Origin: Chloroflexota bacterium
GTDB lineage: Bacteria; Chloroflexota; Limnocylindria; Limnocylindrales; CSP1-4
Direction: 5' to 3'
Length of the DNA stretch: 64,000 bases
Assembly (NCBI GenBank): GCA_003158675.1
Contig: PMKN01000089.1
Span: 77,932 to 141,931, forward strand
Shown: positions 15,695-42,440 of the stretch, piece after piece
Layout of the letters: each line of letters opens with the position of its first letter
Position numbering within the stretch: the stretch's first letter is position 1
Made by a program: the position numbers and the translations under genes
The notes under the pieces: model-generated
The model's database searches: none
Seen by the model: the letters and a program-made list of their open reading frames with translations, nothing else
Told to the model about the DNA's origin: nothing

Positions 15695-16113
15695 TAATTC
15701 ACACCTTGCTCTGCCGGGACCTGACGATTTCGGCGGGCACGACTGCCACCTCGACGGCCGCAGCAGGCTGGGACGACCCGAGACCGGCGGTTGGGTGCCT
15801 GGAGGAGGCGGCGGCGATCGCCGTGCAAAGCCCCGCGAAGCCGGGTCCCAGGAAGGAGACCCGCCTGGATGGAGCGGGGCTGACGGCCCTCCGCTCGATC
15901 TCAGCGTCGAACAACGTAACCTCGACAAGCCCCCTCTGTGGCGCGGAGCCGCTTAGACCGCGTGCCCGAGCGGATGACCGCATTTTCCGGTGGCGACTCG
16001 CGGAGTCAGATCGAGTATCCCACACTGGCCCCGGTCTCGTTTCGAGTCCGGCGCCTATCGCACGGCTGTCATTCGACTGCGGCGGGCGGGGGACGAGCGG
16101 CGAGTCGAACGGC

Positions 16114-17634: not shown

Positions 17635-17791
17635 AGCGGAGGGACTGTACCACAACCTAGATCCAGGTCGCGGCGGGCCGCCTGCAGGCTTAATTTGGAC
17701 GTTTCGCTTACTTGCGCGACGGGGTACAATTTGCGGTCAGTGCCAGGCGTCTGGAGGGCGCCGGCAGGGGAGGAGACGCAGGGGCTCGCGC
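17635..17791 (+). promoter_or_regulatory. divergent intergenic region between LCP-1 and PGT-1; candidate -10 TACAAT (17725-17730) for the + strand gene
   Basis: 157-bp divergent gap. TACAAT lies 62 bp upstream of ATG 17792; a GGGGAGGAG RBS sits at 17767-17775. Confidence 0.25.
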
Positions 17792-19207: not shown

Positions 19208-19213
19208 CGCTAC

Positions 19214-20617: not shown

Positions 20618-20801
20618 ATCCCCAAGACCCTAGCACATCTTCGGCTCGGACCCCTTCTCCGAGCTGGAGGGCGTGGTTAGAATTGCTCGCGACGCCCGGC
20701 GGGCAATGCCTCGTTGAGCGTTATGCTGTGCTACAGAACGATCAAGCGACGGCGGGTTCGACGCCACGGAGCTGCCCGCGAGCAACTTGGAGGCGGGGGA
20801 A

Positions 20802-22214
20802 ATGATTCGACGTCACGCCCTCGCGTTTCGCACCACGCTGATGCTGGCAGACGCGAGCCTGGCCATTGGTCTGGCTTACCTGCTTTCGGTCCTGCGGTTT
20901 GGCCGCCACGGGGCGCTTCCAGCGCTGGACGCCTCCTTGCCAGACATGCGAGCAGTGGTCCTGTTCTTTGCCTGCGCGTGGGTCGCGGCGCTGTGGATGC
21001 ACGGCCTCTACCGCTCGCGTGCGCGATGGACGATCCGCAGCGAGGCTGGTGACATCCTGCGCGCCACCGTGACATTTGCCGTGGCAACGCTGGCCTTCCT
21101 CTACGTCTTCAAGCTCCCGGACGTGAGCCGCTCACTGCTGCTCTTGCTCTTCCCCTCGATGGCGGCGATGGCGCTCGCCACGCGGATCGGCCTGCGACTG
21201 CTGCTCGAGCGAATTCGAGACAGCGGCCACAACACCCGCTTCATGATCGTGATCGGCGTCAACCAGCACGCACAGCAGTTCGCGGATCTCGTCGAGACCC
21301 ACCACGAGCTGGGCATCAAGGTGATCGGTCACGTCAAGGGCTCGGCCAGGGACAAGAGCCAGGCCCTCACCCGGCGACAGCTCGGGACCATGGAGGAACT
21401 GGTGTCGATCCTCCACTCGGAAGTCGTCGACGAGGTGGCAATCTGCCTTCCGTTCTCCGAACAGGAGGCGATCGACGAAACCGCCCGACTGTGCGAAGAA
21501 GAAGGCAAGATCGTCCGGATCCCGGTGGCGGTTCTGGAGAGGACGCTGAACAGCGGGCGGATTGAGCAGATCGACGGCATGCCCGTCCTGTCCCTCGTGA
21601 GCGGGACGGACCGGGTGATCGGTCTGGCCGCCAAGCGCGCTCTCGACATCGCCGCCAGCACCTTCCTGCTCGTCGCCCTGTCGCCGCTGTTTGCGCTGCT
21701 GGCTGTGCTCATCAAGCTGGACTCGCCCGGGAGAGTGTTCTTCCGGCAGGAGAGAATCGGGCTGCACGGGCGGTCGTTCAGCGTGGTCAAGTTCCGCAGC
21801 ATGTGCTTGGACGCAGAAGAACGCCTTGAGGAGTTGCAAGGGCTCAACGCGATCCGCGGTCACGCCTTCAAGATCGAGAGCGACCCCCGCGTGACCCGCA
21901 TTGGACGGTTCTTGCGCCGCACGTCGCTCGATGAATTCCCGCAACTCTGGAATGTGCTGCGTGGCGAAATGAGCCTCGTTGGTCCTCGGCCACCACTGGG
22001 CCGCGAGGTGGCCAAGTACGCCATCTGGCATCGCCGCCGGCTATCCATGAAGCCGGGCATGACCGGCCTCTGGCAAATCGGCGCCCGCCGCCACCCCGAG
22101 TTCGATCGCTGGGTCGAGAAGGACCTCGAGTACATCGACACATGGTCCCTGTGGCTCGACCTCAAGATCATCGCCCGCACCGTCCCGGCCATGTTCAGCG
22201 GCGAAGGCCGCTAG
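20802..22214 (+). CDS. polyprenyl glycosylphosphotransferase (WbaP/CpsE family), copy 2
   Basis: ATG 20802 after GGAGG. Paralog of 17792-19207 with a near-identical catalytic C-terminus (…MSLVGPRPPLGREVAKYAIWHRRRLSMKPGMTGLWQIGARR…). Confidence 0.85.
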   Translation: MIRRHALAFRTTLMLADASLAIGLAYLLSVLRFGRHGALPALDASLPDMRAVVLFFACAWVAALWMHGLYRSRARWTIRSEAGDILRATVTFAVATLAFLYVFKLPDVSRSLLLLLFPSMAAMALATRIGLRLLLERIRDSGHNTRFMIVIGVNQHAQQFADLVETHHELGIKVIGHVKGSARDKSQALTRRQLGTMEELVSILHSEVVDEVAICLPFSEQEAIDETARLCEEEGKIVRIPVAVLERTLNSGRIEQIDGMPVLSLVSGTDRVIGLAAKRALDIAASTFLLVALSPLFALLAVLIKLDSPGRVFFRQERIGLHGRSFSVVKFRSMCLDAEERLEELQGLNAIRGHAFKIESDPRVTRIGRFLRRTSLDEFPQLWNVLRGEMSLVGPRPPLGREVAKYAIWHRRRLSMKPGMTGLWQIGARRHPEFDRWVEKDLEYIDTWSLWLDLKIIARTVPAMFSGEGR

Positions 22215-26250: not shown

Positions 26251-26442
26251 CCTTTGGTCCGCGTCTCGAGACCGCCCAACGATGGGCCGGCCGCTGCATA
26301 ATGCGGACATCAGCAGGATGTTCAGTCGCCGTCATGGCCCGACGAATCCTCCGGGCCACCCAGGAGTTGTCCCACCTTGGACCCACATAGGGTGCGAGGC
26401 GACGGACGGTGCTGCAACCTAACGGAGAGCACGGAGATCAGA

Positions 26443-27312
26443 TTGGCACTCAGCACCGGCCTCGGGCCGACTGCCACCGGGCAGGCCGATCACCAAGAAC
26501 CGACTGTGGTGATCGAAGCCAGCCACGGGTGGCGAGAGCTCGGGCTTTCCGAACTGTGGTCTCACCGAGAGCTCATGTTCTTCTTCGTCTGGCGGGACCT
26601 GAAGGTTCGATACCGCCAGACGGCCTTCGGCGCGGCATGGGCGGTCATGCAACCGGTCCTCCTGATGATCGTGTTCAGCGTCTCGGTGGGCCGCATATCC
26701 GGTGTGGGGCCCAAGAACCTTCCTTATCCCCTGTTTGCGTTCGCGGGCCTGGTGCCGTGGACGCTGTTCGCGTCGAGCCTCACCAGCGCATCCAACAGCC
26801 TGGTCAGCTCAGAGGCCATCATCACGAAGGTCTACTTCCCACGCCTGTTGCTTCCCTTCGCAGCCGTCGGCTCGTTCATCATCGACTTCCTGGTCGCGAT
26901 GGTTGTACTCCTGGTCTTGATGCTGTACTACGGCACCGTGCCAACGATCGCAGTCGTCTGGCTCCCGCTCTTCACGCTCTTCGCCCTCGTCACCGCTTTG
27001 GGGGTTGGCACGTGGCTGGCGGCGATCAACGTGCGCTACCGCGACGTGAAGTACGTTGTGCCATTTCTGGTGCAGACGTGGATGTTCGCCTCGCCGGTCA
27101 TCTACGTGAGCACTTTGATACCCGACAACTGGCGATGGTTGTATGCGTTGAACCCCATGACCGGTGTCCTTGATGGCTTCCGCTGGGCGCTCATCGGGGG
27201 CTCGAGGCCGGACTCACTCATTCTGGTCTCGGCGGCTGCCTCTGTGCTGGTCTTCACTAGCTCCCTGGTCTACTTCAAACACACCGAGCAAACGTTCGCG
27301 GACGTGATCTGA
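26443..27312 (+). CDS. wzm: ABC-2 type polysaccharide export permease (Wzm/TagG/KpsM family)
   Basis: TTG 26443, 5 nt after GGAGA. Six TM helices with the ABC-2 signature (FFFVWRDLKVRYRQTAFGAAWAVMQP). Its stop overlaps the Wzt start (TGATG at 27310-27314). Confidence 0.8.
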   Translation: MALSTGLGPTATGQADHQEPTVVIEASHGWRELGLSELWSHRELMFFFVWRDLKVRYRQTAFGAAWAVMQPVLLMIVFSVSVGRISGVGPKNLPYPLFAFAGLVPWTLFASSLTSASNSLVSSEAIITKVYFPRLLLPFAAVGSFIIDFLVAMVVLLVLMLYYGTVPTIAVVWLPLFTLFALVTALGVGTWLAAINVRYRDVKYVVPFLVQTWMFASPVIYVSTLIPDNWRWLYALNPMTGVLDGFRWALIGGSRPDSLILVSAAASVLVFTSSLVYFKHTEQTFADVI

Positions 27313-28571
27313 TGACCGACGTCGCGATCAGCGCACGAGGCCTGGCCAAGAGATACACGATTGGGGTCCAGCGAGACCCGTACGGCCGTCTGACCGAGGT
27401 CCTCTGGTCCTCGCTGGCACGGCCGTTCAGGCGCAAGAGCGCGGCTCAGCGCGGCGCCGAGTTCTGGGCCCTTCGCGACCTCTCCTTCGACGTTCAGCGC
27501 GGCACCGCAATCGGGGTAATTGGGAGGAACGGTGCCGGCAAGTCAACCCTTCTGAAGATCCTGTCGCGGATCACTGAGCCCACGCTCGGTCGCGCAGAGC
27601 TCCAGGGTCGCGTCGGGTCGCTGCTGGAGGTTGGAACCGGGTTTCACAACGAACTGACTGGCCGCGAGAACATCTCGCTGAGTGGCGCAATCCTCGGGAT
27701 GAAACGGACGGACATCACCCGACGATTTGACGAAATCGTGGCGTTCGCCGATATCGGTCCCTTCATCGATACGCCGGTGAAGCGCTATTCGAGTGGCATG
27801 AAGGTCAGACTCGGTTTCGCGGTGGCGGCATTCCTAGAGCCCGAGATCCTCTTGATCGACGAGGTTCTGGCGGTCGGCGACGCCGCGTTCCAGAGGAAAT
27901 CCATCGGCCGAATCGAGGATGTCACGAACGAAGGTCGGACGGTCATGTTCGTCAGCCACGATCTGGGGGCTGTGGCGAACCTGACCCAGACCTGCCTGTA
28001 TCTCGAATCTGGGCGCCTGAAGCAACTCGGCCCCACCAGGGAGGTCGTACACGCCTACCAGATGGATGGGCTACTCGCACGCGACGACCCGGGTCGCGGG
28101 TTGTCTTTCTACCGACGTTCGGAGGTGCCGGGCGCACCCGTCCGGATCACCAGCATCGCCGCGGTCTCGACACGGCCAGAGCGCGCGACCATCGATCTGG
28201 GCAGCCCTCTGGAGATCGACATCGGAATCGACGTGACGACGCCGATCGAGAGGCTGCCCATAGACGTAACGATCAAAGACCAGCGCGGCCGGACCGTGGC
28301 GATCCTGTTCTCCCCGGATCAAGGCTTCACGCTCACTTCATCCCGTGGCACCGCGTCGATCCATTTGCGCATCGAGGACCTGCCCCTGGCTCCGGGAACC
28401 TACTTCGTCGACGTTGGATTGAACCAGAGCCCGCCCCACACGACGGCATTCGACGTGATCCTCGATTTCCCGATTGTCGAGGTTGAGAACTCGGGACAAG
28501 TCGTCCAGTGGCTGGAGCGACCGTGGGGTTCTCTGCAGCCGCAGCGAGTGGACTGGCGGCGGTCAGCTTGA
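27312..28571 (+). CDS. wzt: polysaccharide ABC exporter ATP-binding protein Wzt with C-terminal glycan-binding (Wzt_C-like) domain
   Basis: Walker A GRNGAGKST, signature YSSGMKVRLGF, Walker B ILLIDEVLAVGD, H-loop FVSHD. An extra ~170-aa C-terminal beta-rich domain follows the NBD, as in O-antigen Wzt proteins that read a terminal modification. Confidence 0.85.
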   Translation: MTDVAISARGLAKRYTIGVQRDPYGRLTEVLWSSLARPFRRKSAAQRGAEFWALRDLSFDVQRGTAIGVIGRNGAGKSTLLKILSRITEPTLGRAELQGRVGSLLEVGTGFHNELTGRENISLSGAILGMKRTDITRRFDEIVAFADIGPFIDTPVKRYSSGMKVRLGFAVAAFLEPEILLIDEVLAVGDAAFQRKSIGRIEDVTNEGRTVMFVSHDLGAVANLTQTCLYLESGRLKQLGPTREVVHAYQMDGLLARDDPGRGLSFYRRSEVPGAPVRITSIAAVSTRPERATIDLGSPLEIDIGIDVTTPIERLPIDVTIKDQRGRTVAILFSPDQGFTLTSSRGTASIHLRIEDLPLAPGTYFVDVGLNQSPPHTTAFDVILDFPIVEVENSGQVVQWLERPWGSLQPQRVDWRRSA

Positions 28572-28595
28572 CTGCCAAGCCGTGGTAGTTCACTT

Positions 28596-30461
28596 ATGAC
28601 GACGCGCTACGGTGACGCAGAGCGCGAGCAGCTTGCCGAATTGGTCCATGGTCACGCCGGCTTCGAATGGGCGATCGCCCGAGCCGTTTCGGCGCTGCCA
28701 ACAGACGCCACCCATATCGTCCACTTCGGGTGCGGCATCGGCTGGTTGACCGCCGAGATCAGCCGGAGTCGGCGCAAGGCGTCGGTGACTGGGATCGATC
28801 CGAGCCTGTCTGCGATCCAAACTGCCCGCGCACTGTTCGCGAACGACCGGCTCCGCTTCGAAATCGGCGATCTGGCGACCAGCGAACCGGGGCCGGGGCT
28901 GCTGGCGGAGGTCCTGGTCCTGTCGAGCACCCAGGCGATACTCTTGAGTCAGGCGCGATCCGAGGTGGTTCGGGCCGCCTCCGCCTCGACCGCCGACCGG
29001 GCCGCGGTCTTGCTCCATCTTCGGGACCCAAGGAAGAGCCCGCGGGCGTCCACATCCGCGAGCGCCGAACCCTCCGCGGACCTGAAGTCTGGACTGCGCG
29101 AACTGGCCGAGGCACTTGGCGGGAAGATCGCCTTCCAGGCCACTTCGGACCGCGGCAACGACACCCAGAGCATCGTGCTCATCCAGCGCGGGTATGCGAG
29201 CCAGCCCGCGAGCGCCGGGCACGCGAGAGACTTCGCCATCGAAGGCAAGAGCCGCCGCCGAGCCCGAGTGTCGTCGCGGCTGGGGCTACGCGTCGCACCG
29301 GCCGGCACGCTGATTCCGAACCGCACCGGACCGGCTGTGCTCGTGGTCTCTCCGAACCCGAACTCCGTGGTCGAGACGTTCATCAACGCCATAGTCGAGG
29401 GATTGCCCGTCCGCGTCGAAGTCTTGTTCGGCATCCCGCCAGACGCCCGAGACGTGGACAATCGAAGGCTCATCCCGAAATGGGCGCGCGTCCTCAAGAG
29501 GGTGCTACGGAAGGTACGCATGCGGAGCGTCGCGTCCCAAATCGATGGCTTCTTCATTGGCCGCTTCTTCAGGCAGAGGCATATCCGAGTACTGCTCGCC
29601 GAATACGGCCCCACCGGCACGCACCTACTTGAGACATGCCGGCGGCATTCCATGCCTTTGGTGACGCAGTTCAATGGGTACGATGCATACGACCGGCCAA
29701 CCGTCGACAGTCTCCGGGCGGATTACCGGTGCCTCCTGGCCGAGGAGTCCGCGACGGTCGCCGTGTCCCAGGACATGCGGGCCCGCCTCTACGAACTTGG
29801 CGCCCGCCCCGGCAGCGTGCACTGGATCCCCTGCGGCGCCGATCCAGATCGCTTCAACGCAACTCGTGCCGAACTCAACCCACCGATCTTCCTGGCGGCC
29901 GGGCGGTTCGTGGAGAAGAAGGCTCCGCATCTGACCCTGTTGGCGTTCAGCCGGGTCGTGAAAGACGTTCCCACCGCCCGACTCCAGATGGTGGGCGACG
30001 GCCCCCTCCTCGACGCCTGTCGCCAACTGGCCGAGGCGCTCGGCATTGCGGGCTCTGTGGAGTTCCTCGGTTTCAAGCCGCACGAGGATCTGGCTGAACT
30101 CATGCAGAATGCCCGAGCGTTCGTCCAGCACTCGGTGACGGCTCCGTCCGGCGACAGCGAAGGGACGCCGGTAGCCATCCTTGAAGCCGGCGCCTCAGGT
30201 CTTCCCGTCGTGTCCACACGGCATGGCGGGATACCCGAGATCGTGGTCGACGGGGAGACCGGATATCTCGTGCAGGAAGGTGACGTGGAATCGATGGCAG
30301 ACCGGATGCGCGAGCTTGCGCTCGATCCTTCACTAGCCGGACGGCTCGGGGCCCAGGCTCGTGTACATGTCCTTGAGCACTTCAGCCAGTCGACCTTGCT
30401 TGCTCAATTCGGGCAGGTTCTGCGGGACGCGATGGCCGATGATCGGCGTATGAGGACGTGA
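28596..30461 (+). CDS. bifunctional SAM-dependent methyltransferase (N-terminal) / GT4 glycosyltransferase (C-terminal)
   Basis: N-terminus: class I methyltransferase motifs I (IVHFGCGIGWLTAEI), post-I (VTGIDPS) and II (RLRFEIGDLA). C-terminus: GT4 (FLAAGRFVEKKAPHLTL...EGTPVAILEAGASGLPVVSTRHGGIPEIVVDGETGYLV). Confidence 0.75.
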   Translation: MTTRYGDAEREQLAELVHGHAGFEWAIARAVSALPTDATHIVHFGCGIGWLTAEISRSRRKASVTGIDPSLSAIQTARALFANDRLRFEIGDLATSEPGPGLLAEVLVLSSTQAILLSQARSEVVRAASASTADRAAVLLHLRDPRKSPRASTSASAEPSADLKSGLRELAEALGGKIAFQATSDRGNDTQSIVLIQRGYASQPASAGHARDFAIEGKSRRRARVSSRLGLRVAPAGTLIPNRTGPAVLVVSPNPNSVVETFINAIVEGLPVRVEVLFGIPPDARDVDNRRLIPKWARVLKRVLRKVRMRSVASQIDGFFIGRFFRQRHIRVLLAEYGPTGTHLLETCRRHSMPLVTQFNGYDAYDRPTVDSLRADYRCLLAEESATVAVSQDMRARLYELGARPGSVHWIPCGADPDRFNATRAELNPPIFLAAGRFVEKKAPHLTLLAFSRVVKDVPTARLQMVGDGPLLDACRQLAEALGIAGSVEFLGFKPHEDLAELMQNARAFVQHSVTAPSGDSEGTPVAILEAGASGLPVVSTRHGGIPEIVVDGETGYLVQEGDVESMADRMRELALDPSLAGRLGAQARVHVLEHFSQSTLLAQFGQVLRDAMADDRRMRT

Positions 30462-30546
30462 GCGCTTCCCTGCATCATTGCACCCGGGCATTGGTCCAGC
30501 CCGCACGCGAAGCACCACAGCACTCGCAGGAGTGGACAAACCATCC

Positions 30547-31302
30547 ATGAGGATCATCGGAGACGGTCTCATCGCGCGAAGCCTGCAGCCTTTCGCGGGA
30601 GCCCACGATCGCGTCTTGGCCTTCGCCACCGGGGTCTCCGATTCAGCTTGTACGAGCGATACCGAGTTTGCTCGAGAGTGCGCCCTTCTCTACGAGGTCC
30701 TGGAGGATGCGAGGTCGGCGCACGCAAAGATCGTCTACTTCTCCGGCGGAGGAGCCCTGTATGGACGATGGGATCGGCCGGCGATCGAATCCGGCCCGCT
30801 TGAGCCGCGCTCGCAATACGGTCGCCACCAGCTGTTCTGTGAGGGCGTCGTGGCCGCCGCCGGGGTCTCGTACCTCGTCGTGCGATTGCCGAACGTGGTG
30901 AGCGGCGGAGCCAACCCTCATCAGCTCATTCCCAACATCGTCGCGCAGGTCCTTGAGGGGCAGGTGCACGTTCAATCCCGCGCGCAGCGCGACCTCATCG
31001 ATGCCGCCGATCTGGGCCCGGTGGTCGTCGAACTCCTCGGGTCCGCCGCGGATCGAGATGTCGTCAACGTCGCGACGGGCATCTCAGTGGACGCCCCGAC
31101 CATAGTGAGCGAGATCTGCGCGATCCTCGGCGCGAGCCCCTCGATCATCGCCGAAGATCGAGGGGAGTCTCAGCATTTCGATACAGCTCACCTTCGGCAA
31201 ATCCTGGGTCGCGATCCATTCGCCAATGGGAGTACCTACCGGGAGCTACTACGCCGGTATGTCCCGCAGCTCGCCGAGGGGTTGACCAAGTCGCGCGTGT
31301 GA
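30547..31302 (+). CDS. short NAD(P)-binding Rossmann protein (RmlD-substrate-binding-like / atypical SDR)
   Basis: ATG 30547 (MRIIGDGLIARSL...). Atypical glycine motif and a YGRHQ segment that may correspond to Y-x3-K; only ~250 aa. Confidence 0.4.
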   Translation: MRIIGDGLIARSLQPFAGAHDRVLAFATGVSDSACTSDTEFARECALLYEVLEDARSAHAKIVYFSGGGALYGRWDRPAIESGPLEPRSQYGRHQLFCEGVVAAAGVSYLVVRLPNVVSGGANPHQLIPNIVAQVLEGQVHVQSRAQRDLIDAADLGPVVVELLGSAADRDVVNVATGISVDAPTIVSEICAILGASPSIIAEDRGESQHFDTAHLRQILGRDPFANGSTYRELLRRYVPQLAEGLTKSRV

Positions 31303-31372
31303 CGCTCACCGGTCGGCAGATGCGAATGCCTGAAGGATTGGCCGCTCGGTTCAGCCCACGCGAGGCGCTCCC

Positions 31373-32491
31373 CTACAGCCGAGCTTCGACCATGCTAACG
31401 AGTTGCCCCATCCTGTTGTGCCAGGTGTGGTCCCGCAGTGTCCGCGCCTGACCGGCGGATGCGATCCTCGAGGCCTCCTCGGGGTGGCCGTGGTAATAGG
31501 AGACCAGACTTGCGCACTCCTCAGGGCTGTTGTACACGATGACTTCGGCTCCCACATCGAACAGGTCGGGCAGAGTCGACTTGGCATCTGTCACGAGCAA
31601 GGCACCCATCCCGGTCGCTTCGTAGAGCCGCAGATTCGCCGCGTAGGGACCGGCGACGGCGCCGTGTTGGTTCAGCGTTATGCGGGACCGCGAAAGCACC
31701 TCGTACATACCCCGTCCCCAGGCGGGACCCCTGACCAGCCGCCGAAGAGGCGACTCGGCGGGCAAACCCGTAGCGTCGCCGGTCCAGATCTGGATGGGAG
31801 TTACTGCCGCAACGGCCTCGACGAGTTCGCGGCGTCCGGGATGCTGCCGTCCCAATGACCCGACGAACGAAGCGGGGATGTCGCGGTCGAGGACCGGCAC
31901 CTCGGCCAGTACCGCGGGCGAGAAAGCAAGCGGCAGCCACTCGGACGCAATGCCTTCGCTGCGAAACCGCTCCACGAGCGAAGGCAGAGCCGAGACGATG
32001 AGGTTATAGGACCGGGAGTCCAGGCCGCCGGGTAGTTCCGTCGCCACCTGAGCGACCAGCAGTCGGGTCAAGGTCTGCATCCGCGCGGCTATGGCTGAGG
32101 GCATGATGCCGATGATCCCAACGTAGACCACATCGGGACGGTGGACTCGGACCTGTTCGAGCAGCAACTCCCAGCTTATCTGCGGACGGGGCCGTGACAG
32201 CCACGGCACGATGTCGCGGCGCCGCCGGAAGCTCCAGCGCCCCTTCACCAAATCCGATACGCCGTGCTCTCTAGCCCACGCCTGCTGCGCCGGATAGGCA
32301 TTGGGGACGATAACCTCGGCTTCGTGGCCGAGCTGGCGAAGGGCCTCGGCCTGGAATTCGGCCTCGCCGAACATTCCGGCGCGGATCGCAGCCTGCTGTT
32401 CCTCGTAGGACGCGGAAGCAAGTTCCGGGCGATCACGGTAGATGCCGTCGAGGAAGGCCGAGTAGTTGGTGTCGATGAACAGGTAGCGCAT
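31373..32491 (-). CDS. glycosyltransferase, GT-B fold (CgeB/DUF3880-like GT1/GT4 relative)
   Basis: 372 aa. C-terminal GT-B nucleotide-binding half (GMYEVLSRSRITLNQHGAVAGPYAANLRLYEATGMGALLVTD). Confidence 0.5.
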   Translation of the reverse strand: MRYLFIDTNYSAFLDGIYRDRPELASASYEEQQAAIRAGMFGEAEFQAEALRQLGHEAEVIVPNAYPAQQAWAREHGVSDLVKGRWSFRRRRDIVPWLSRPRPQISWELLLEQVRVHRPDVVYVGIIGIMPSAIAARMQTLTRLLVAQVATELPGGLDSRSYNLIVSALPSLVERFRSEGIASEWLPLAFSPAVLAEVPVLDRDIPASFVGSLGRQHPGRRELVEAVAAVTPIQIWTGDATGLPAESPLRRLVRGPAWGRGMYEVLSRSRITLNQHGAVAGPYAANLRLYEATGMGALLVTDAKSTLPDLFDVGAEVIVYNSPEECASLVSYYHGHPEEASRIASAGQARTLRDHTWHNRMGQLVSMVEARL

Positions 32492-32493
32492 TG

Positions 32494-33426
32494 CTAGGCG
32501 CGGGGACGAGATTGCCCGGACTCACCACCGGCCGGCTGAGGGGCGACGAACAGAAACCCGCGGTAGTCGGCCTGTTCGGGAGCGTTTGGTACCGGCGGGC
32601 GTTCCTGGATCAGGAATTCCCGAACGAGTGTGAGGCCAAGCTCCACGGCGAAACCTAGAAACTCTCCCTCGTTGAGGAACCATCCGGGGTACTCCGTCGC
32701 GTAACCGTGGCGATAGGGGTGCTGAACGACCACGAAAGAAGGGGCGTGCTGCACGAACGGCTGCCTGGTGACGTAGACGTACCCATCGCAGACGTTTGCG
32801 AGGCCGGCCAGCTTCGCCCGCCAGTCTTGTGAGTACTGCAGCGAGCTGCTCGCGACCACGAGGTCATATCGCCGGGACAACGCCGCTTCCTCGCTGGTCG
32901 GGAAACTGACCTGGGGTAGCACGCTTCGACCGCCCTCAGCCAGAGACGGCAGGTCGAAACATGTGTAGTCCAAGACCAAGTCAGGCATCAGCGCCCGGGC
33001 GTAGACGTAGTAATGGCCGATCCCTCCGCCCCAGTCCAGAACCGAGAGTCGATCCCGTTTGTAGGCCGCTCGGGCCAGTACGTATGCGAAGCTCATCACG
33101 GTGTTGTGGAGCGCGTAGTCGAGGTCGGCGACCGCGGACTCGTGGGACCGCCCGAAGGGATCTGCGCCGTTGGCCGAGTCGACGAACGCGGCCCAGCGCG
33201 ATAGCTGCGTCGACGCCACAGACTCGGAGTCCCAGCCCCGCAGGTGCTTACTTTCGTCTGGCCAACCGCCGGGAAGATACTCCCAGTCTGGCATCTCGGC
33301 GCGACGAATCCTGCGGGTCGTGGCCCGAACTAGCTTGACGACTCCTGGCGGCAGGACGTTTCGGGCGATAGATCTGGCGGTACGAGCCAGGGTCCGGCTC
33401 ATGAGGCCTCGGGGCGCGGCCGGCAT
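32494..33426 (-). CDS. SAM-dependent methyltransferase (class I; glycan-cluster-associated type)
   Basis: Motif I LSVLDWGGGIGHYYV; motif II region YDLVVASSSLQY. Confidence 0.6.
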   Translation of the reverse strand: MPAAPRGLMSRTLARTARSIARNVLPPGVVKLVRATTRRIRRAEMPDWEYLPGGWPDESKHLRGWDSESVASTQLSRWAAFVDSANGADPFGRSHESAVADLDYALHNTVMSFAYVLARAAYKRDRLSVLDWGGGIGHYYVYARALMPDLVLDYTCFDLPSLAEGGRSVLPQVSFPTSEEAALSRRYDLVVASSSLQYSQDWRAKLAGLANVCDGYVYVTRQPFVQHAPSFVVVQHPYRHGYATEYPGWFLNEGEFLGFAVELGLTLVREFLIQERPPVPNAPEQADYRGFLFVAPQPAGGESGQSRPRA

Positions 33427-33518
33427 GCGTTTCCCGGGCGGGCGTAGCGGACAACCGAATCAATCACGGTCCGATTCTCGCATACGGGGCTTTGCGAAGT
33501 GGAGTACCAGACCGCCCG

Positions 33519-34490
33519 CTACAGGCGGAACGACTTCGGCGAGACCATGATCTGGCGCCTCAGCACCCGAAGGATGACTCGGCGCCAGCCGTAGCGCGGA
33601 AACCGGAGGCTGCTGGCCCTATGAATCGCTGGCGCCCGAGCCCGAATCGCACCGGTGGCCGACCGCAGTTCTTTCAGGTAGCCACCGTAGAGCCGGGACG
33701 TGATACGGGCGCTCATGCGACCGTAGCCGTCGATACCGAGGTCCCACAGGCCTGGCCCGACAGCCTTGAACCCCTGGAAGTGATAGAAGACCAGCGGTTG
33801 ACCGTTGACGGTGGGCGGATCGGCTTTCACGTCTATGTCGTACTGCATGAAGTTCCAGGGTGCGAGGTCGACCCCGAGATGCTCGATAACCCGGACGCCG
33901 GGAAGAGCGGGCCAGCTGTCGAGATAGCCCTGGTCGGCAAACTTGCCATCCTCGACGCGGTCGTAGCACCACGCCAGGCACTGCTCGCGCCAATGGCTGA
34001 GGACTGCCCGACCGGCGGCGTCGTTGCGGAACGTCAGCAGCGCGACGTTGTAGGTGCCGTATTTGGCAAGCTCCAAAAGGTGCGGCGGGTAACGGTGAGG
34101 GACGATCACCACAGATCCCCTGGCCAGCTCATCGAAGACCGGCTGCGGGCTCGAGTAGAACAGCAGGTCCGAATCCAGATACGTGATCGAATCGATGTCA
34201 GGCATCCGGGCCAGCAGAAACCACGGCAGAGCGGGCGACAGAGTGAAGTAGTACTCCACCGTCGAACGGTTCTTCTTGGCGTCCAAGAGCGCCGGGTCCG
34301 CCTGCTCCAGATCCGTCAGACGGAGAGGACGCAGCGACTCGACGTTGAGCGCGGAAACCGCCTGGTAGGCATCTTCGTCGAGGCACAGAGCCCAGAGCGT
34401 GAAGGGCGGACTATGCCGCACGAGGGACTGGTGCAATGCCACGGCGCGAGTGAGGTAGTTGCGGTCGAAATAGGTACAGAAATGGATCAC
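33519..34490 (-). CDS. putative GT-A fold glycosyltransferase (DxD motif)
   Basis: MIHFCTYFDRNYL... N-terminus typical of GT8/GT-A 'nucleotide-diphospho-sugar transferase' proteins; DxD in YLDSDLLFY. Confidence 0.45.
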   Translation of the reverse strand: MIHFCTYFDRNYLTRAVALHQSLVRHSPPFTLWALCLDEDAYQAVSALNVESLRPLRLTDLEQADPALLDAKKNRSTVEYYFTLSPALPWFLLARMPDIDSITYLDSDLLFYSSPQPVFDELARGSVVIVPHRYPPHLLELAKYGTYNVALLTFRNDAAGRAVLSHWREQCLAWCYDRVEDGKFADQGYLDSWPALPGVRVIEHLGVDLAPWNFMQYDIDVKADPPTVNGQPLVFYHFQGFKAVGPGLWDLGIDGYGRMSARITSRLYGGYLKELRSATGAIRARAPAIHRASSLRFPRYGWRRVILRVLRRQIMVSPKSFRL

Positions 34491-35668
34491 GAAGGGCGTT
34501 CCAACCCAGCCGCCATCCTCGGAGCGCTATTTGCCCACTCGAGAACGGCCTGGATAACTCGCTCCACTTCCTCGTCCGAGAGACTCGGGAACATCGGCAG
34601 GCTGACGATCTCACTGACCACGCGTTCCGTGACCGCCAGTCCAGCTGGCTGCGGCAGCCGTCCGGCGTAGGCGGGTTGAAGGTGCACAGGCACGGGATAG
34701 TGGATGGCGGTCGAAATGTCACGGTCGCGGAGCGAGGCCATCAACGCTTCGCGATGGCTGCTTCTGACCACGTACTGATGGAAGGCGTGCTCGACACCCT
34801 GGGTGACGGCCGGTATGCCCACCGCCGATTCGCCGAGACCGGAATCGTAGCGCGCGGCGATGGTCCGCCTGCGTGCGTTATCTTCGTCGAGATATGGCAG
34901 TTTCGCTCGCAGGATGGCTGCCTGGACTTCGTCGAGCCGGCTGTTCATCCCCGGAACAGCGCTTACATAGCGGTCCCTCCACCCGTACTGACGCAGTTCC
35001 CGCACCCTGGCTGCGAGGCTCGCGTCATCCGTCGCCACCAGCCCGCCGTCGCCGAGCGCGCCCAGGTTCTTCGTCGGGTAGAAGCTGAACGCGGCAATAT
35101 CGCCCCAGGTCCCCGCGATGCGCCCGTCATGCCGCGCCCCATGGGCTTGAGCGCAGTCCTCCACGACGAGCAGTCCCGCGGCGCGGGCGATGCGCATGAT
35201 CTCGGTCATATCGGCGATCTGGCCGTAGAGATGCACGACGACCACGGCCTTGGGCCGGCTGCCCCCCGGACGAGGATCCGCCGCGATGGCCTCCGCCAGG
35301 CTGGCCGGATCCATCGTGTAGGTGGCTTCATCGACGTCCACGAGGACCGGCGTCGCCCCGGTGCGCTCGACACCCACCACTGTCGCCACCGCTGTATGCG
35401 AAACGGTGTAGACCGCGTCCCCGGGACCGACACCGAGAGCTCGCAAGGACAGCTCGACCGCATCTGTCCCGTTGCCCACCCCGACGCCCTCGCCCAGACC
35501 TAGATAGGCGGAGAACTCCGCCTCGAAAGCGCGGACCTCATTCCCCAGGATGTACCAGCCGCTGTCCAGTGTTCGCCGGACGGCGGCGTCGATCTCCGCC
35601 TGATGGCCACGGTAGTCGCGGCCGGGCGAGGACTGAGGGATTGCCGCGAACCCCCTCTTCTCAGACAT
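34487..35668 (-). CDS. PLP-dependent sugar aminotransferase (DegT/DnrJ/EryC1/StrS family)
   Basis: ATG 35668, overlapping the upstream stop by 8 bp. Conserved PLP-lysine region (AFSFYPTKNLGALGDGG) and DAV...GxGDxV motifs. Confidence 0.85.
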   Translation of the reverse strand: MSEKRGFAAIPQSSPGRDYRGHQAEIDAAVRRTLDSGWYILGNEVRAFEAEFSAYLGLGEGVGVGNGTDAVELSLRALGVGPGDAVYTVSHTAVATVVGVERTGATPVLVDVDEATYTMDPASLAEAIAADPRPGGSRPKAVVVVHLYGQIADMTEIMRIARAAGLLVVEDCAQAHGARHDGRIAGTWGDIAAFSFYPTKNLGALGDGGLVATDDASLAARVRELRQYGWRDRYVSAVPGMNSRLDEVQAAILRAKLPYLDEDNARRRTIAARYDSGLGESAVGIPAVTQGVEHAFHQYVVRSSHREALMASLRDRDISTAIHYPVPVHLQPAYAGRLPQPAGLAVTERVVSEIVSLPMFPSLSDEEVERVIQAVLEWANSAPRMAAGLERPS

Positions 35669-36662
35669 ACTTGTCGAGGTTCTGGCGGTAGAACTCGAGC
35701 GTACGAGCCAACCCGACCTCCAACGGAACGCGCGGCTCCCAGCCGATCGCCGTCCGTATCGCCGTGAAGTCCGCGTAGTAGTCCCCGATGTCGATCCGCT
35801 TGCGCTCGGGCGGGAAGCTCCGCGTTTCGGCGACGCCGCCACCGTTCACCTTGATCAGGAGGCTCGCCAGATCGTGGAGGCTGATGACTTCAAGGCCCCC
35901 CAGGTTGAACGTACGCCCGTTCGCATTCTCGTCGCTTGCGCAGGCCAGGAACGCTTCAACCGCGTCGTCCACGTAAGTGAAGTCTCGCAGCTGGGATCCC
36001 TCCCAGACCTCGAACGGCTCGCCGCGAATCACTTGCCGGATCCAGATCCCGAGGAACGTCTGGCGCGCGTCGCAGATGCGCATATGTGGTCCGTATGTGT
36101 TCGTGAGCCGGAGTGCGCAGGCCCGGATCCCATAAACGTCGTTGTAGAGAATGTGGTAGGCCTCGCCGGCGGCCTTGTTGATGCCGTTGACGTCTACGGG
36201 CCGAACCAGGTGCTTTTCGTCGACCGGGACGTATTGCGGGCGGCCGTAGATCTGACGGGTGCTCGCGAATACGATCTTTATCTCGGGATTGAACTTACGG
36301 CAGGTTTCGAGAATTGCCAGCTGAGCCCGACCGTTTATCTCCAGGTCTGTCTCCGGGTCCTTCATTGAATCCATGTGGCCCGTCTGGCCCGCGAGATTGA
36401 AGAGGAAGTCCTGGCCGCCGATGAGGTACCGGAGTCCATGTTCGTCTCGAACGTCCGAGATATTGATCCTGATCCGATCGGCGAACTTCGATACGTTGAA
36501 GAGGTTGCCGCCGTATTCGGGGATGAGGCTGTCCACGACAGTGACGTCGGCTCCCCAGTCCACGAGCCGCCCCGCAAGATGGGAGCCGATAAAGCCGAGT
36601 CCCCCGGTTATCAGCACTCGCTTGCCGGCGAAGTCGCGGTGGGAGGATTGGCCTTCGGTCAT
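35661..36662 (-). CDS. NAD-dependent sugar epimerase/4,6-dehydratase (SDR family)
   Basis: RVLITGGLGFIGSHLAGRLV; catalytic YGINKAAGE. It is coupled to the downstream aminotransferase, suggesting a 4-keto to amino-deoxy sugar branch. Confidence 0.8.
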   Translation of the reverse strand: MTEGQSSHRDFAGKRVLITGGLGFIGSHLAGRLVDWGADVTVVDSLIPEYGGNLFNVSKFADRIRINISDVRDEHGLRYLIGGQDFLFNLAGQTGHMDSMKDPETDLEINGRAQLAILETCRKFNPEIKIVFASTRQIYGRPQYVPVDEKHLVRPVDVNGINKAAGEAYHILYNDVYGIRACALRLTNTYGPHMRICDARQTFLGIWIRQVIRGEPFEVWEGSQLRDFTYVDDAVEAFLACASDENANGRTFNLGGLEVISLHDLASLLIKVNGGGVAETRSFPPERKRIDIGDYYADFTAIRTAIGWEPRVPLEVGLARTLEFYRQNLDKYV

Positions 36663-36865: not shown

Positions 36866-37690
36866 CTAGGCCCTCGAGCTCCTGTCCTCGCTCGACCTCC
36901 CCAGCAGCGCTCGCTTGGCCAGCCTTCGGAAGACGCGTGTAACCGGCGAGACAACCGGCCCGACGAAGCCCACCTTAAACAGCGAAATCGCCGCCCGGCT
37001 ACGGAGCGGCATTCCGTGCCGTCGCCGAATCTTCAGGCTCTGTCGGGCCGCGGCGGCAGATCCCGCAACAGACTTGGCGCGCGGATGCTCCCGAAAGCGA
37101 GCCAAAACCTCGGTAGGAAGAGTCTTCATCGCGCCGACTTTCGCCAGCTTCAGCCACAGGTCGACGTCCATCGCAAGGTCATAGCCCAGTTCAAGCCCTC
37201 CACAGCGCCGGTAGGCTTCTGCGGAAAAGAAAGTAGCCGGTTGCGCCGGATTGGCCGGCAGTCGCAGGAGGCCCTGAAGGGTTGGCACCGACAGCGATCC
37301 GCCCGCTCCCACGACAGCGCCGTGGGCATCGATCACCAGACAGGCGCCCGTTACCATTGCCAGCGTCGGGTCGGCAGTGAAGACATCCACTACACGCCGG
37401 AGCGCGCGGGGCTCGAGAACGTCGTCGGCGTTGAGCCAGCCAAAGATATCGCCCGTGGCTCTGCTGAAACCTTTGATGAGGGCGTCCGTCTGGCCGGCGT
37501 CGGGGCCTATGATCGCTTCATATCCCAGGGTGCTGTGCTCACGAAGCCACTCGGCACTGCCGTCCGTGGAACCTCCGTCATACACAAGATGCTCGACTTC
37601 GACGTCGTGCCGTTGCTCGGCAACCGAGCTGATGCACTCGGGCAACCAGGGCATCCCGTTGTAGACCGGGGTCACGACCGTGACCTTCAT
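36866..37690 (-). CDS. glycosyltransferase family 2
   Basis: VTVVTPVYNGMPWLPECISSVAEQ...YDGGSTDGS...NADD. ATGA overlap with the upstream GT2 (37687-37690). Confidence 0.8.
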   Translation of the reverse strand: MKVTVVTPVYNGMPWLPECISSVAEQRHDVEVEHLVYDGGSTDGSAEWLREHSTLGYEAIIGPDAGQTDALIKGFSRATGDIFGWLNADDVLEPRALRRVVDVFTADPTLAMVTGACLVIDAHGAVVGAGGSLSVPTLQGLLRLPANPAQPATFFSAEAYRRCGGLELGYDLAMDVDLWLKLAKVGAMKTLPTEVLARFREHPRAKSVAGSAAAARQSLKIRRRHGMPLRSRAAISLFKVGFVGPVVSPVTRVFRRLAKRALLGRSSEDRSSRA

Positions 37691-38598
37691 TCAAACTCCG
37701 CTGCGTGGTGCTCGTATGCAGCAGCCACTTTCTCCGCCTCAGCCTCGTAGAACGCTTCAACGGCCCGTCGGTCACCGTTGACCTGCCATTCGCGGACCTT
37801 GGCGGCCGCGGCCAGCTTGTAGGTGGCCATCATGGCCGACAGGTAGAAGCCCCGCCAGCCGTCCCGGTAGCCCTGAAGACGCACGTATCGGCGCCAGAAT
37901 TCCCGCAAGGCTCGCAACCCAGCGCGCGGCACCGACCCAGCCTTTGCGTCCGTTCGCACCCGTTCCGACTCAATGTCCGTATAGCGATTGAGCTTCTCCA
38001 GGAAATGGCGCACATCCAGATAATTGAAGTGGACGATGGCCAGACCTTCCATATAGGGCAGCCTCATGACCCTCGCGCCTGGTTGGATCTCCAGGAAGCC
38101 GTGGATTTGGGGCGGCGTGGCCACAGACCCTCTACGGAAGAACCGCTCGTGACGGTCCTGAGTCGGACCCCAACCTGTCCGGCGAAGCGGGGCGCCCAGC
38201 AGGTAGTTGAGCCACGGTAGGACGACGACGTCGGCTTCGTCTCTCCTGACCACTTCCAAGAGCCGGGTGCTCAGTGGGAGCGGCACGAGTTCGTCGGCAT
38301 CGAGAAGCAGTATCCAGTCTCCGGTTGCCTGCGCGATGGCATACGCCCTGGCGGGATCGGCGTAGCCAAGCGGTTCATGCAGGAACACCCTGGCGCCGAA
38401 GCTGCTTGCGATTTCCCGCGTGGCGTCGCTGCTATGCATGTCAACCACAATGATCTCGTCTGCCCAGTTTCGGACGGACCGCAACGCAAACGGCAGTCGT
38501 CGCTCCTCGTTGAGCGTGTTCATGACGACGGAGATGCGCGGTCTCGACGTCGTTTGGGCCGGCAATTCCGAGTTCGACAAAGGGTGTCTACCACGCAT
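37687..38598 (-). CDS. glycosyltransferase family 2
   Basis: ATG 38598; the track ORF extends falsely to 39498. ISVVMNTLNEERRL...IVVDMHSSDAT...LLDADE. Confidence 0.75.
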   Translation of the reverse strand: MRGRHPLSNSELPAQTTSRPRISVVMNTLNEERRLPFALRSVRNWADEIIVVDMHSSDATREIASSFGARVFLHEPLGYADPARAYAIAQATGDWILLLDADELVPLPLSTRLLEVVRRDEADVVVLPWLNYLLGAPLRRTGWGPTQDRHERFFRRGSVATPPQIHGFLEIQPGARVMRLPYMEGLAIVHFNYLDVRHFLEKLNRYTDIESERVRTDAKAGSVPRAGLRALREFWRRYVRLQGYRDGWRGFYLSAMMATYKLAAAAKVREWQVNGDRRAVEAFYEAEAEKVAAAYEHHAAEFE

Positions 38599-38715
38599 TC
38601 TTGAATAGGCACTGGTCAGTCTACCCGAGTGTCCGCCGGGGCGACCATGGGTCGCCCGCTCTTCCGCCCCGTCCAAAGGGCACGCGCACACCAGGGTTTC
38701 TGCCACAATCAGCGG
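38599..38715. promoter_or_regulatory. divergent promoter region between the GT2 operon (-) and the gmd-fcl-wzx-methyltransferase operon (+)
   Basis: 117-bp gap between divergent start codons. Confidence 0.3.
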
Positions 38716-40709
<1,994 letters not shown>

Positions 40710-40810
40710 ACACCTCTCGCCGCGGCCCAACTCCACCCGGCGAGAATCCCGCCGCGGCACGGGCCGACGACTTCGCCTCCGTCAACCTGGCTTCACTCGA
40801 CTCCCCGCCC

Positions 40811-42382: not shown

Positions 42383-42440
42383 GCTTGTCAATCCCAGGAC
42401 GCGATCTGACGCGACTGGAGTAGTGCGAGGCTCCATGTAG

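Follow-up and report, generated by a model that had tools for sequence, protein, structure and literature searches.

Does the methyltransferase half of a methyltransferase-glycosyltransferase fusion, encoded directly behind an ABC glycan exporter, make the cap that the exporter reads? This question is raised by a locus in a 64,000-nucleotide stretch of DNA (the window) from a little-studied soil lineage of Chloroflexota. The cluster is an ordinary kind of bacterial sugar-polymer export locus. Its single unusual feature is that the methyltransferase (MT) half of the fusion lacks nearly all residues that its relatives keep, and its activity is, judging from the sequence, probably gone. The features named in the original prediction were all present at or near the positions assigned to them, and are given here with their neighbours.

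26443..27312, + strand: Wzm, the exporter's ABC-2 type permease (PF01061, ABC2_membrane, E 8e-19)
27312..28571, + strand: Wzt, ABC nucleotide-binding domain (NBD, residues ~1-255; PF00005, ABC_tran, E 4e-21) and Wzt_C carbohydrate-binding module (CBM, residues 277-394 = 28140-28493; PF14524)
28596..30461, + strand: fusion of an eroded class I MT-fold domain (residues ~5-198 = 28608-29189), a disordered linker and an intact GT4 (GT-B) glycosyltransferase (residues ~231-620 = 29286-30455) (Pfam, AF2 and Foldseek)
30547..31302, + strand: short SDR-like protein, ~251 aa (PF01370, E 6e-14)
31373..32491, - strand: GT-B glycosyltransferase (Glyco_trans_1_2, PF13524, E 1e-30), final gene of a convergent glycosyltransferase operon
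32494..33426, - strand: stand-alone TIGR04325-family SAM methyltransferase whose motifs are intact, possible source of methylation (91 bits, cut-off 80)
33519..34490, - strand: GT-A-like glycosyltransferase with a DSD motif, assigned by sequence reading (weak GT8 similarity; PF01501, E 0.08 only)
34487..35842, - strand: DegT/DnrJ/EryC1-type sugar aminotransferase (PF01041, E 3e-112, match from residue 81)
35661..36662, - strand: NAD-dependent sugar epimerase/dehydratase (PF01370, E 1.5e-44)
36866..37690, - strand: GT2 glycosyltransferase (PF00535, E 7e-21)
37687..38601, - strand: GT2 glycosyltransferase, ~304 aa (PF00535 at residues 323-448 of a 603-aa ORF)
38629-39762, + strand: gmd
42441-43280: NanM-like sugar O-methyltransferase (TIGR04371, 74 bits, cut-off 44)

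The wzm ORF spans 26377-27312. An in-frame TTG at 26443 was taken as the start, because the 79%-identical orthologue in the closest relative (locus L001) begins there, with identity from residue 23 on. Wzt had been predicted to carry a carbohydrate-binding C-terminal domain, and a Pfam profile search agreed: residues 277-394 matched Wzt_C with 42 bits against a gathering cut-off of 30.4 (E 1.2e-10). Residues 49-377, which include both NBD and CBM, aligned to the full-length Wzt of Aquifex aeolicus (8dku/7k2t; 8dku residues 33-357, E 8e-56), whose Wzm-Wzt structure has been solved (PMC9445017). The two proteins share the two-domain architecture, but the CBM region is far more divergent than the NBD. 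In characterised systems, a Wzt_C CBM accompanies export gated by a cap at the non-reducing end (PMC11231755, PMC9445017). We infer a cap in the window solely because a CBM is present.

The window CBM was 47.5, 42 and 39% identical to the CBMs of three loci with intact MT domains (L085, L004 and L011, respectively), and about 24% identical to those of other loci. Since CBMs with 42-48% identity are paired with intact fusions, a cap is probably still read despite the erosion of the MT half. The CBM of the L001 Wzt was 82-88% identical over two reading-frame pieces; the frameshift between them may be an assembly error.

The presence of an MT fold and a GT4 on one polypeptide directly after wzm-wzt was confirmed by the agreement of Pfam domains and an AF2 model. 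The fusion has 621 residues, with Methyltransf_25 at residues 41-96 (30.9 bits, cut-off 27) and Glyco_transf_4 plus Glycos_transf_1 in the glycosyltransferase half (E 3e-39). The model (pLDDT 87.4) comprises a 7-stranded class I MT fold (~residues 5-198), partly imposed by an alignment in which typical family members dominate, and a GT-B domain. Foldseek matched the MT domain to DnrK, TehB-like and ChlM structures, and the glycosyltransferase half, which contains an EX7E motif (E522..E530), to BshA, PimB' and MshA. Within the MT domain, the block at residues 151-160 had a pLDDT of 33, with values below 50 for residues 147-161. A coiled-coil ruler, for which the original prediction proposed a check, was absent.

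The prediction that the N-terminal domain is a functional SAM methyltransferase was in part contradicted. The fold, GxGxG (G45xG47xG49), strand-2 Asp68 and Asp92 are kept, whereas residues for substrate and catalysis are lost, among them D43H at the motif-I Asp, the loop DVYEH, and LQPxDE and W..DY.H, all almost invariant in 56 typical relatives. Family models matched the domain over residues ~26-101 only, that is, over its first third. Of 22 near-invariant key positions, the window's fusion keeps 7, against 20-22 in the 56 typical members (21-22 in almost every one). Nine relatives retain 5-8, two of them with a G-to-R change in GxGxG, and what is new here is that the window's fusion falls, by its sequence, into this small clade with an eroded MT half. 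The losses are uneven: 26 of 48 conserved columns in the MT half vs 8 of 94 in the GT4 half, which keeps 86. Within the eroded clade, mean pairwise identity was 0.30 for MT and 0.57 for GT4, compared with 0.48 and 0.51 among typical members, and dN/dS was twofold higher in the MT half (0.34 vs 0.17). No replacement consensus was found in the MT half of the eroded clade, where only 2 columns were conserved in a clade-specific manner. Because of the lost motifs, the MT half is unlikely to be an active terminator, and most probably persists, for structural reasons, as a non-catalytic remnant. The retained GxGxG, Asp68 and Asp92, together with a dN/dS well below 1, nevertheless make SAM binding and a residual or altered activity conceivable.

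The exact MT-GT4 architecture proved to be common in public data, with more than 55 full-length homologues (35-50% identity) in many phyla, and thus is not novel. The fusion belongs to a widespread, uncharacterised family that normally adjoins wzm and a CBM-bearing wzt. Of nine genome loci that encode the fused form, seven had a long Wzt (a stop-to-stop ORF of at least 380 aa) no more than 3 kb away, and Wzt_C was found in 9 of 10 such long Wzt tested, 5 of them over the Pfam cut-off. The order wzm, wzt with CBM, MT-GT4 and short SDR is collinear in the L001, L085, P0008 and P0009 loci. The short SDR, with GxGxxA at its Met24 start, invariably lies 3' of the MT-GT4 gene, and its position is also kept in L084. 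An ABC transporter was not found within 10 kb of the fused homologues L002/L003 and L028 or of the eroded homologue L084.

Proteins with an N-terminal MT joined to glycosyltransferase domains are also known from characterised systems, contrary to the original prediction of domains "fused differently". The S-layer glycan locus of Geobacillus stearothermophilus NRS 2004/3a reads wzm-wzt-wsaE, and WsaE consists of an N-terminal 2-O-methyltransferase and two rhamnosyltransferase domains (PMC2943079). The likeness lies in architecture and gene order, with an MT-fold domain and glycosyltransferase domain(s) encoded directly after wzm-wzt, and extends to the monoderm host and the ABC-transporter-dependent glycan. 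Unlike WsaE, the window fusion has one GT4 instead of two glycosyltransferase domains, and its MT half lacks the family-invariant residues. The acceptors would also differ: likely peptidoglycan via LCP ligases in the window, S-layer protein via an oligosaccharyltransferase in Geobacillus.

In Pseudomonas syringae, the CPA TET operon encodes Wzm, Wzt with Wzt_C, an O-methyltransferase and a GT4-GT4 WbdA-like protein, with MT and glycosyltransferase fused in some isolates (PMC7820976). Like the window, it combines a C-terminal glycan-binding domain on Wzt, a SAM methyltransferase and GT4 adjoining wzt (sometimes as one polypeptide) and the GDP-6-deoxyhexose gene gmd in the neighbourhood; the likeness is again one of architecture. 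However, its product is a Gram-negative LPS O-antigen and not a monoderm wall glycan, WbdA-like enzymes carry two GT4 modules and the window enzyme one, and the MT domain is eroded only in the window.

The capping logic proposed for the window is that of the WbdD-Wzt systems of E. coli O8/O9a and Klebsiella O3/O5, in which a terminal modification stops polymerisation and the CBM of Wzt then recognises it ahead of export (PMC3482155, PMC11231755). It is also that of Klebsiella O7 ORF6, in which terminator and polymerase form one polypeptide (MT-kinase-coiled coil-GT2-GT2) with the MT at the N-terminus (PMC11231755); its glycosyltransferases are GT2, not GT4. A search of the locus for sequence similarity to WbdD, a WbdD-like kinase domain and a coiled coil found none of the three.

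We consider the chances slightly better than even that the locus encodes the core machinery for assembling a cell-wall glycan and exporting it through an ABC transporter in a monoderm member of the Chloroflexota, probably of the class Candidatus Limnocylindria, with an eroded MT half in the fusion and a cap read by the Wzt CBM. The exporter type predicted for the locus was borne out by Wzm, Wzt with Wzt_C and the fusion, and the predicted Gram-positive (monoderm) type of the organism by two LCP ligase genes and one WecA/TagO-like gene nearby. Its PolX shares 82-86% identity with PolX proteins of Candidatus Limnocylindrales (Chloroflexota), a monoderm lineage. In the proposed pathway, the fusion's GT4 half and the convergent operon's GT-B, GT-A and GT2 enzymes would assemble a lipid-linked polymer in the cytoplasm. 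Binding of a non-reducing-end cap by the CBM would license export via Wzm/Wzt, and the product would be joined to peptidoglycan, probably by the nearby LCP ligases.

The two additional SAM methyltransferases of the original prediction were verified by family matches above the cut-offs (TIGR04325 and TIGR04371); the one at 42441-43280 may be part of a second pathway. Should the cap be a methyl group, the TIGR04325 enzyme, with the motifs VLDWGGGIGH, CFDLP and YDLVVASSSLQY, would be a more likely source than the fused MT half and is perhaps the cap maker. Its gene belongs to the convergent operon, 2 bp from the downstream glycosyltransferase gene, and a TIGR04325 gene adjoins GT4 homologues in L027. 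Two additional stand-alone MT genes in the eroded P0009 locus have no counterpart in P0008, a collinear locus of the typical kind, although very few loci stand behind the idea that a stand-alone MT displaces the fused one. The pattern is not clean, because the typical locus L085 likewise contains a further MT, situated between its wzm and wzt genes, and L001 lacks the TIGR04325 gene.

For typical family members, in which the MT domain is as well conserved as the GT4, it is very plausible that an active fused methyltransferase caps the chain of its own GT4 and the CBM reads the methyl group, as a WsaE-like terminator would have it. The window has the gene order of wzm-wzt-wsaE, and its MT domain retains the class I fold, the glycine motif and both aspartates and is under purifying selection. 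Against this stand the 15 of 22 key positions lost, the absence of shared replacement residues in the eroded clade, the missing first Gly of GxGxG in the sisters P0009 and P0010, and the short reach of the family models; for the window, we regard an active fused terminator as unlikely. An equally doubtful alternative, reached by analogy, is that the CBM reads a distinct terminal sugar, perhaps added by the GT4 from a donor supplied by the short SDR or the aminotransferase pathway, while the stand-alone methyltransferases decorate internal residues or nucleotide sugars. It is established that the Wzt CBMs of Klebsiella O12 and O4 read a sugar cap, terminal Kdo (PMC11231755). The GT4 and short SDR pair persists without a fused MT in L070 and L082, GT4-only homologues adjoin a long Wzt in 21 of 71 loci, and the DegT/SDR amino-sugar pathway is conserved within the module. 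However, a strongly conserved MT fused to GT4 is the ancestral and typical state, and the window CBM is nearest to those of loci with intact MT domains, which together argue that methylation is part of the recognised terminus.

It is very improbable that there is no end-capping checkpoint at all, with the CBM a relic or generic chain binder, length set by polymerase and exporter kinetics, and the methyltransferases unrelated decorators in an ordinary wall-polysaccharide exporter. The missing ruler and kinase, the decaying MT half and the frameshift in the L001 CBM would fit, but that frameshift is possibly an assembly artefact, and the window CBM appears conserved and not decaying, because it scores above the Pfam cut-off and keeps its high identity to the L001 pieces and 39-48% identity to distant loci.

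The convergent operon itself is partly shared with L001, where the GT-B gene has a 69%-identical orthologue in the same position and the GT2 gene at 36866..37690 a 74%-identical one directly upstream of wzm. The second GT2 (37687..38601) has an 80%-identical L001 orthologue of only 304 aa, and the 603-aa ORF was rejected as its true length, the extension being an antisense shadow of gmd. Homologues of the GT-A-like gene adjoin GT4 homologues in L021, L040 and L059. The aminotransferase, for which the nearest NCBIfam models all stayed under their cut-offs, probably starts downstream of the ORF start. Further along, the methyltransferase gene at 42441-43280 adjoins a Wzx-like flippase.

The locus formed by wzm, wzt and the downstream fusion gene is a genuine yet conventional ABC-transporter-dependent glycan module in an under-studied monoderm phylum, with a Wzt that bears a carbohydrate-binding module (CBM). 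It includes a member of an MT-GT4 family (methyltransferase fused to a GT4 glycosyltransferase) whose methyltransferase (MT) half is eroded in this lineage. Pfam and NCBIfam scans recovered all elements named in the original prediction, namely Wzm, Wzt, the fusion and two stand-alone methyltransferases:

26443-27312 (in ORF 26377-27312), Wzm, ABC2_membrane PF01061, E 8e-19 (Pfam scan)
27312-28571, Wzt, ABC_tran PF00005 (E 4e-21) and Wzt_C PF14524 (Pfam scan)
28596-30461, plus strand, fusion, 621 aa, methyltransferase match at residues 41-96, strong GT4 signature at 259-589
32494-33426, minus strand, TIGR04325 methyltransferase, 91.1 bits (NCBIfam cut-off 80)
42441-43280, TIGR04371 NanM-like sugar O-methyltransferase, above cut-off

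In this DNA of about 66% G+C, the wzm and wzt genes overlap at 27312, an ABC-2 permease gene adjoining an ABC ATPase gene. The TTG start of Wzm at 26443 agrees with the orthologue in L001, the locus of the closest relative (79% identical). The C-terminal extension of Wzt had been taken for a glycan-binding domain, and this reading held. PF14524 scored 42 bits at residues 277-394, after the NBD, which exceeds its gathering score of 30.4, and residues 49-377, spanning NBD and CBM, aligned with the full-length Aquifex Wzt of known structure (8dku/7k2t, E 8e-56). The Wzt_C match and the alignment through the CBM therefore support the assignment and speak against an unrelated extension.

The AF2 model of the fusion was confident (pLDDT 87.4, pTM 0.84). 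Its N-terminal half adopts a seven-stranded, Rossmann-like class I MT fold (strands at residues 40-44, 63-68, 86-90, 104-110, 132-144, 176-186 and 189-198), in which residues 147-161, the site of LQPxDE in relatives, are disordered; a disordered linker and the GT-B domain follow. Foldseek matched the MT half to the class I methyltransferases DnrK, a TehB-like MT and ChlM (probability 1.0), and the C-terminal half to the GT4 enzymes BshA, PimB' and MshA (E 1e-21). The GT4 half matched PF13439 and PF00534, the two Rossmann-like domains of GT-B. Its EX7E motif and donor-binding GRFVEKK region (GRFVxKK in the family) are intact, and E522/E530, R437 and K441/K442 are invariant. A coiled-coil ruler, raised as a possibility in the original prediction, was not found in the fusion: DSSP on the AF2 model revealed no long helix and no coiled coil, only short helices within the two folds.

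Conservation was compared between the window's fusion with its nearest relatives (the eroded clade) and typical members, which have an intact MT half. A 29-sequence alignment included 25 typical members, in which 48 MT columns are conserved at 85% or more. Of these 48, the window's fusion and its nearest relatives had lost 26; of the 94 conserved GT4 columns, they had kept 86. At 22 key MT positions of a 72-sequence alignment, the typical members (n = 56) read DGGGDDDVYEHRPQQPDEWDYH, with 20-22 matches each and nearly all at 21-22. The window's fusion retains 7 of the 22 (G45, G47, G49, D68, D92, R121 and P159), and 5-8 are retained in the homologues P0001, P0002, P0005, P0009, P0010, P0018, P0023, P0037 and P0057. 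In P0009 and P0010, Arg replaces the first Gly of GxGxG. Motif I of the window (IVHFGCGIG) still has G45, G47 and G49, and strand 2 has D68; the acidic residue of motif I is His43. The family-invariant DVYEH loop after strand 4, LQPxDE and W..DY.H, which constitute the putative acceptor and catalytic site of the MT domain, are replaced by STQAI, AEPSAD and R..TQ.I, respectively. In the window's domain, MT family models cover only about residues 26-101; in a typical one they align with residues 33-197. The presumption of a functional SAM site in the N-terminal domain was thus only partly borne out: despite the kept glycine loop and Asp68, the family-invariant residues are largely lost. Judged from these motifs, the window's MT domain probably no longer catalyses the ancestral reaction.

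The residues at the lost MT positions differ among the eroded sequences. Neofunctionalisation of the MT half is unsupported, since only two MT columns are conserved specifically in the eroded clade. Mean pairwise identity of the MT and GT4 halves was 0.30 and 0.57 in the eroded clade, versus 0.48 and 0.51 in typical members. Relative to the L001 orthologue (71% identical), the MT half had a dN/dS of 0.34 and the GT4 half one of 0.17, indicating that constraint on the MT half is relaxed, yet not absent. The sequence comparisons indicate that the MT half has probably decayed and not taken on another function. The eroded MT half cautions annotators that a domain match does not equal activity, and it is a small natural experiment on the loss or replacement of terminator modules.

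A protein search identified dozens of full-length homologues of the fusion, 610-680 aa long and carrying both Pfam domains (MT and GT4), at 97-99% coverage and 35-50% identity; their sources include Deltaproteobacteria, Patescibacteria and Gaiellaceae. In a scan of GTDB species genomes, the GT4 domain family was found in many phyla and the fused form in Chloroflexaceae, Planctomycetota, Flavobacteriaceae, Deltaproteobacteria and Binatia; the best full-length match to the window's fusion there was only 37% identical. A Wzt homologue, counted if a stop-to-stop ORF of 380 aa or more lay within 3 kb, was found near the fused form in 7 of 9 genome loci, and wzm adjoins it in an eighth. Nine of the ten family-linked Wzt scanned have Wzt_C (five above the gathering score). 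The metagenomic loci of the closest relatives are collinear, with wzm, wzt(Wzt_C), MT-GT4, a short SDR gene and then an opposite-strand GT-B, continuing with GT2, DegT, a 254-aa methyltransferase and epimerases. As exceptions to the linkage, no ABC transporter was found nearby at the homologue-bearing loci L002/L003, L028 and L084. Taken together, the data point to the MT-GT4 family as a widespread, uncharacterised and common partner of CBM-bearing Wzt exporters. We also observed stand-alone proteins of about 255-265 aa (P0281, P0290, P0296 and others) that are homologous along the whole fused MT domain, so the MT module circulates as a separate gene too.

The short SDR-like gene (about 250 aa) always directly adjoins the (MT-)GT4 gene, distant phyla included:

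window 30547-31302, plus strand, short SDR
L001 11860-12617, short SDR
L084 5302-6063, short SDR
L085 5582-6409, short SDR
L070 9294-10004, short SDR
L082 9303-9995, short SDR

In place of the usual SDR motif YxxxK, the Chloroflexota-like copies carry Y-x-x-x-Q; the Lys is retained in the Bacteroidota and Alteromonas copies. The gene product might act in donor-sugar synthesis or be a non-catalytic partner. The ORF at 30478-31302 is not a truncated epimerase, as six loci share the short form and translation probably starts at Met24, where a GxGxxA motif lies.

If the fused MT half no longer acts, methylation could come from other enzymes. The window's TIGR04325 enzyme is a candidate supplier: it is flanked by two GT genes and its SAM motifs are intact (DWGGGIG, FDLP and DLVVASSSLQY present). 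L001 carries other stand-alone methyltransferase genes. At the eroded P0009 locus, two extra methyltransferase genes lie directly 3' of the SDR gene, and the typical P0008 locus of the same sample, collinear in other respects, lacks both. These few loci are suggestive of a gain of stand-alone methyltransferases where the MT half is eroded, but the typical locus L085, which likewise has an extra methyltransferase, blurs the pattern. In Synechococcus sp. WH 5701 (L027, 5040-8719), two tandem GT4-domain homologues are immediately preceded by a TIGR04325 gene (140 bits), which hints at a recurrent TIGR04325-GT4 partnership. Literature searches returned nothing informative on TIGR04325 and nothing usable on O-methyl sugars in Chloroflexus wall polysaccharide.

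The window's CBM is 47.5% identical to that of L085, 42% to L004 and 39% to L011, all three loci with intact MT domains, and about 24% identical to other family-linked CBMs. In L001, too, the CBM is well conserved except for a frameshift. This likeness and conservation suggest, by inference only, that the window's CBM may still recognise a terminus similar to that of the intact-MT loci; a cap at the window locus, like its chemistry, is putative. The frameshift lies inside the CBM of the L001 wzt (8730-9990), both reading-frame pieces being 82-88% identical to the window's Wzt, and may be an assembly error or could be a recent pseudogene.

A bolder reading, to which we give a rather small chance, is that MT-GT4 proteins, as partners of CBM-bearing Wzt exporters, would be chain terminators that add a sugar and then methylate it, across many phyla (with hits in Chloroflexota, Planctomycetota, Bacteroidota, Deltaproteobacteria and Binatia), and that in the window's Limnocylindria-like clade the MT half would be a non-catalytic module, catalysis having moved to an unrelated enzyme. 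As part of the same improbable reading, the non-catalytic half might be a binding module for SAM or for the glycan end, or a docking site for a stand-alone methyltransferase. If true, this reading would make the clade a documented example of a glycan chain-length checkpoint in which a pseudoenzyme has formed and non-orthologous displacement has occurred.

What is known of cap-and-read export control through Wzt CBMs comes mainly from a few Gram-negative O-antigen systems and one Geobacillus S-layer glycan. The present locus would extend this logic to an uncultured lineage of soil Chloroflexota, in which the polymer is probably linked to peptidoglycan; it opens no new kind of system. In Geobacillus, the gene that directly follows wzm-wzt encodes WsaE, an N-terminal 2-O-methyltransferase joined to two rhamnosyltransferase domains, and Wzt was proposed to bind the methylated glycan end (PMC2943079). 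The window resembles this system by architecture, with an N-terminal MT followed by a GT, directly after wzm-wzt (26443-30461). Klebsiella O7 ORF6 is an MT-kinase-coiled coil-GT2-GT2 protein, and only terminated chains are exported, via the Wzt CBM (PMC11231755). The P. syringae TET operon comprises wzm, wzt(Wzt_C), an O-methyltransferase and a GT4-GT4 protein, the MT and GT genes being fused in some isolates (PMC7820976). With these precedents, the claim of a novel, differently fused terminator architecture is unsupported. The WbdD type (E. coli O9a / Klebsiella O3) differs, as the window's fusion has no kinase, coiled coil or detectable sequence similarity to it; PDB sequence searches with the fusion and with a typical MT domain gave no WbdD chain among their matches.

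The locus sits within a large envelope-glycan island, in which a minus-strand operon, the TIGR04325 gene included, converges on wzm-wzt-fusion-SDR:

14606-15928, WecA/TagO-like transferase, PF00953, WecA-like match
16114-17655 and 19214-20617, two LytR-CpsA-Psr (LCP) ligases, PF03816, E 1e-30 and 8e-33
31373-32491, minus strand, GT-B
33519-34490, minus strand, GT-A-like protein with DSD motif
34487-35842, minus strand, DegT aminotransferase
35661-36662, minus strand, SDR
36866-37690, minus strand, GT2
37687-38601, minus strand, GT2, real gene of about 304 aa
within 38629-43280, gmd, TIGR01472, 525 bits

Upstream of the exporter there are also two Bac_transf phosphoglycosyltransferases, a weak GT-C-like protein, an Acyl_transf_3 protein and a hexapeptide acetyltransferase. 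The cluster at 14606-22214, with the WecA/TagO-like transferase, both LCP ligases and both phosphoglycosyltransferases, implies putative peptidoglycan-linked glycopolymers with more than one initiation route, and the window's glycan would presumably be attached by the LCP ligases. A Gram-positive-type (monoderm) host is supported by these ligases and by PolX (812-2668), which is 82-86% identical to that of Candidatus Limnocylindrales, an order in the class Candidatus Limnocylindria of the phylum Chloroflexota.

Further downstream, gmd and the gene for an Fcl-like reductase (score below cut-off) are accompanied by genes for a Wzx-like flippase and the NanM-like methyltransferase and by additional GT2 genes. 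The genes at 38629-43280 look like a second, flippase-dependent pathway, possibly for a methylated glycan derived from a GDP-6-deoxyhexose. With the flippase besides Wzm/Wzt, the island thus houses a minimum of two export routes. All three methyltransferases assigned to the pathway are indeed present, but the third (42441-43280), beside the flippase, may not belong to the ABC route.

Several ORFs were discarded. The 603-aa GT2 with an unassigned N-terminal half (37687-39498, minus strand) owes its first 300 codons to an antisense shadow of gmd, the 357-aa ORF at 39471-40544 (minus strand) is an antisense shadow of the fcl-like gene, and the ORF at 33492-34670 (plus strand) has no homologues, the opposite-strand ORF 33519-34490 being the conserved gene. 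At the edge of the island, a 1039-aa protein (46738-49857, plus strand) with weak cellulase-like Glyco_hydro_cc matches may be a glycan-remodelling or glycan-degrading enzyme. Finally, the same or a near-identical genome has been sampled before, as public metagenome sets contain a 251-aa record (P0241) whose residues 1-210 are 100% identical to the fusion N-terminus (28596-29348, plus strand) and a JGI protein (P0121) 100% identical over 547 aa to PolX (minus strand).
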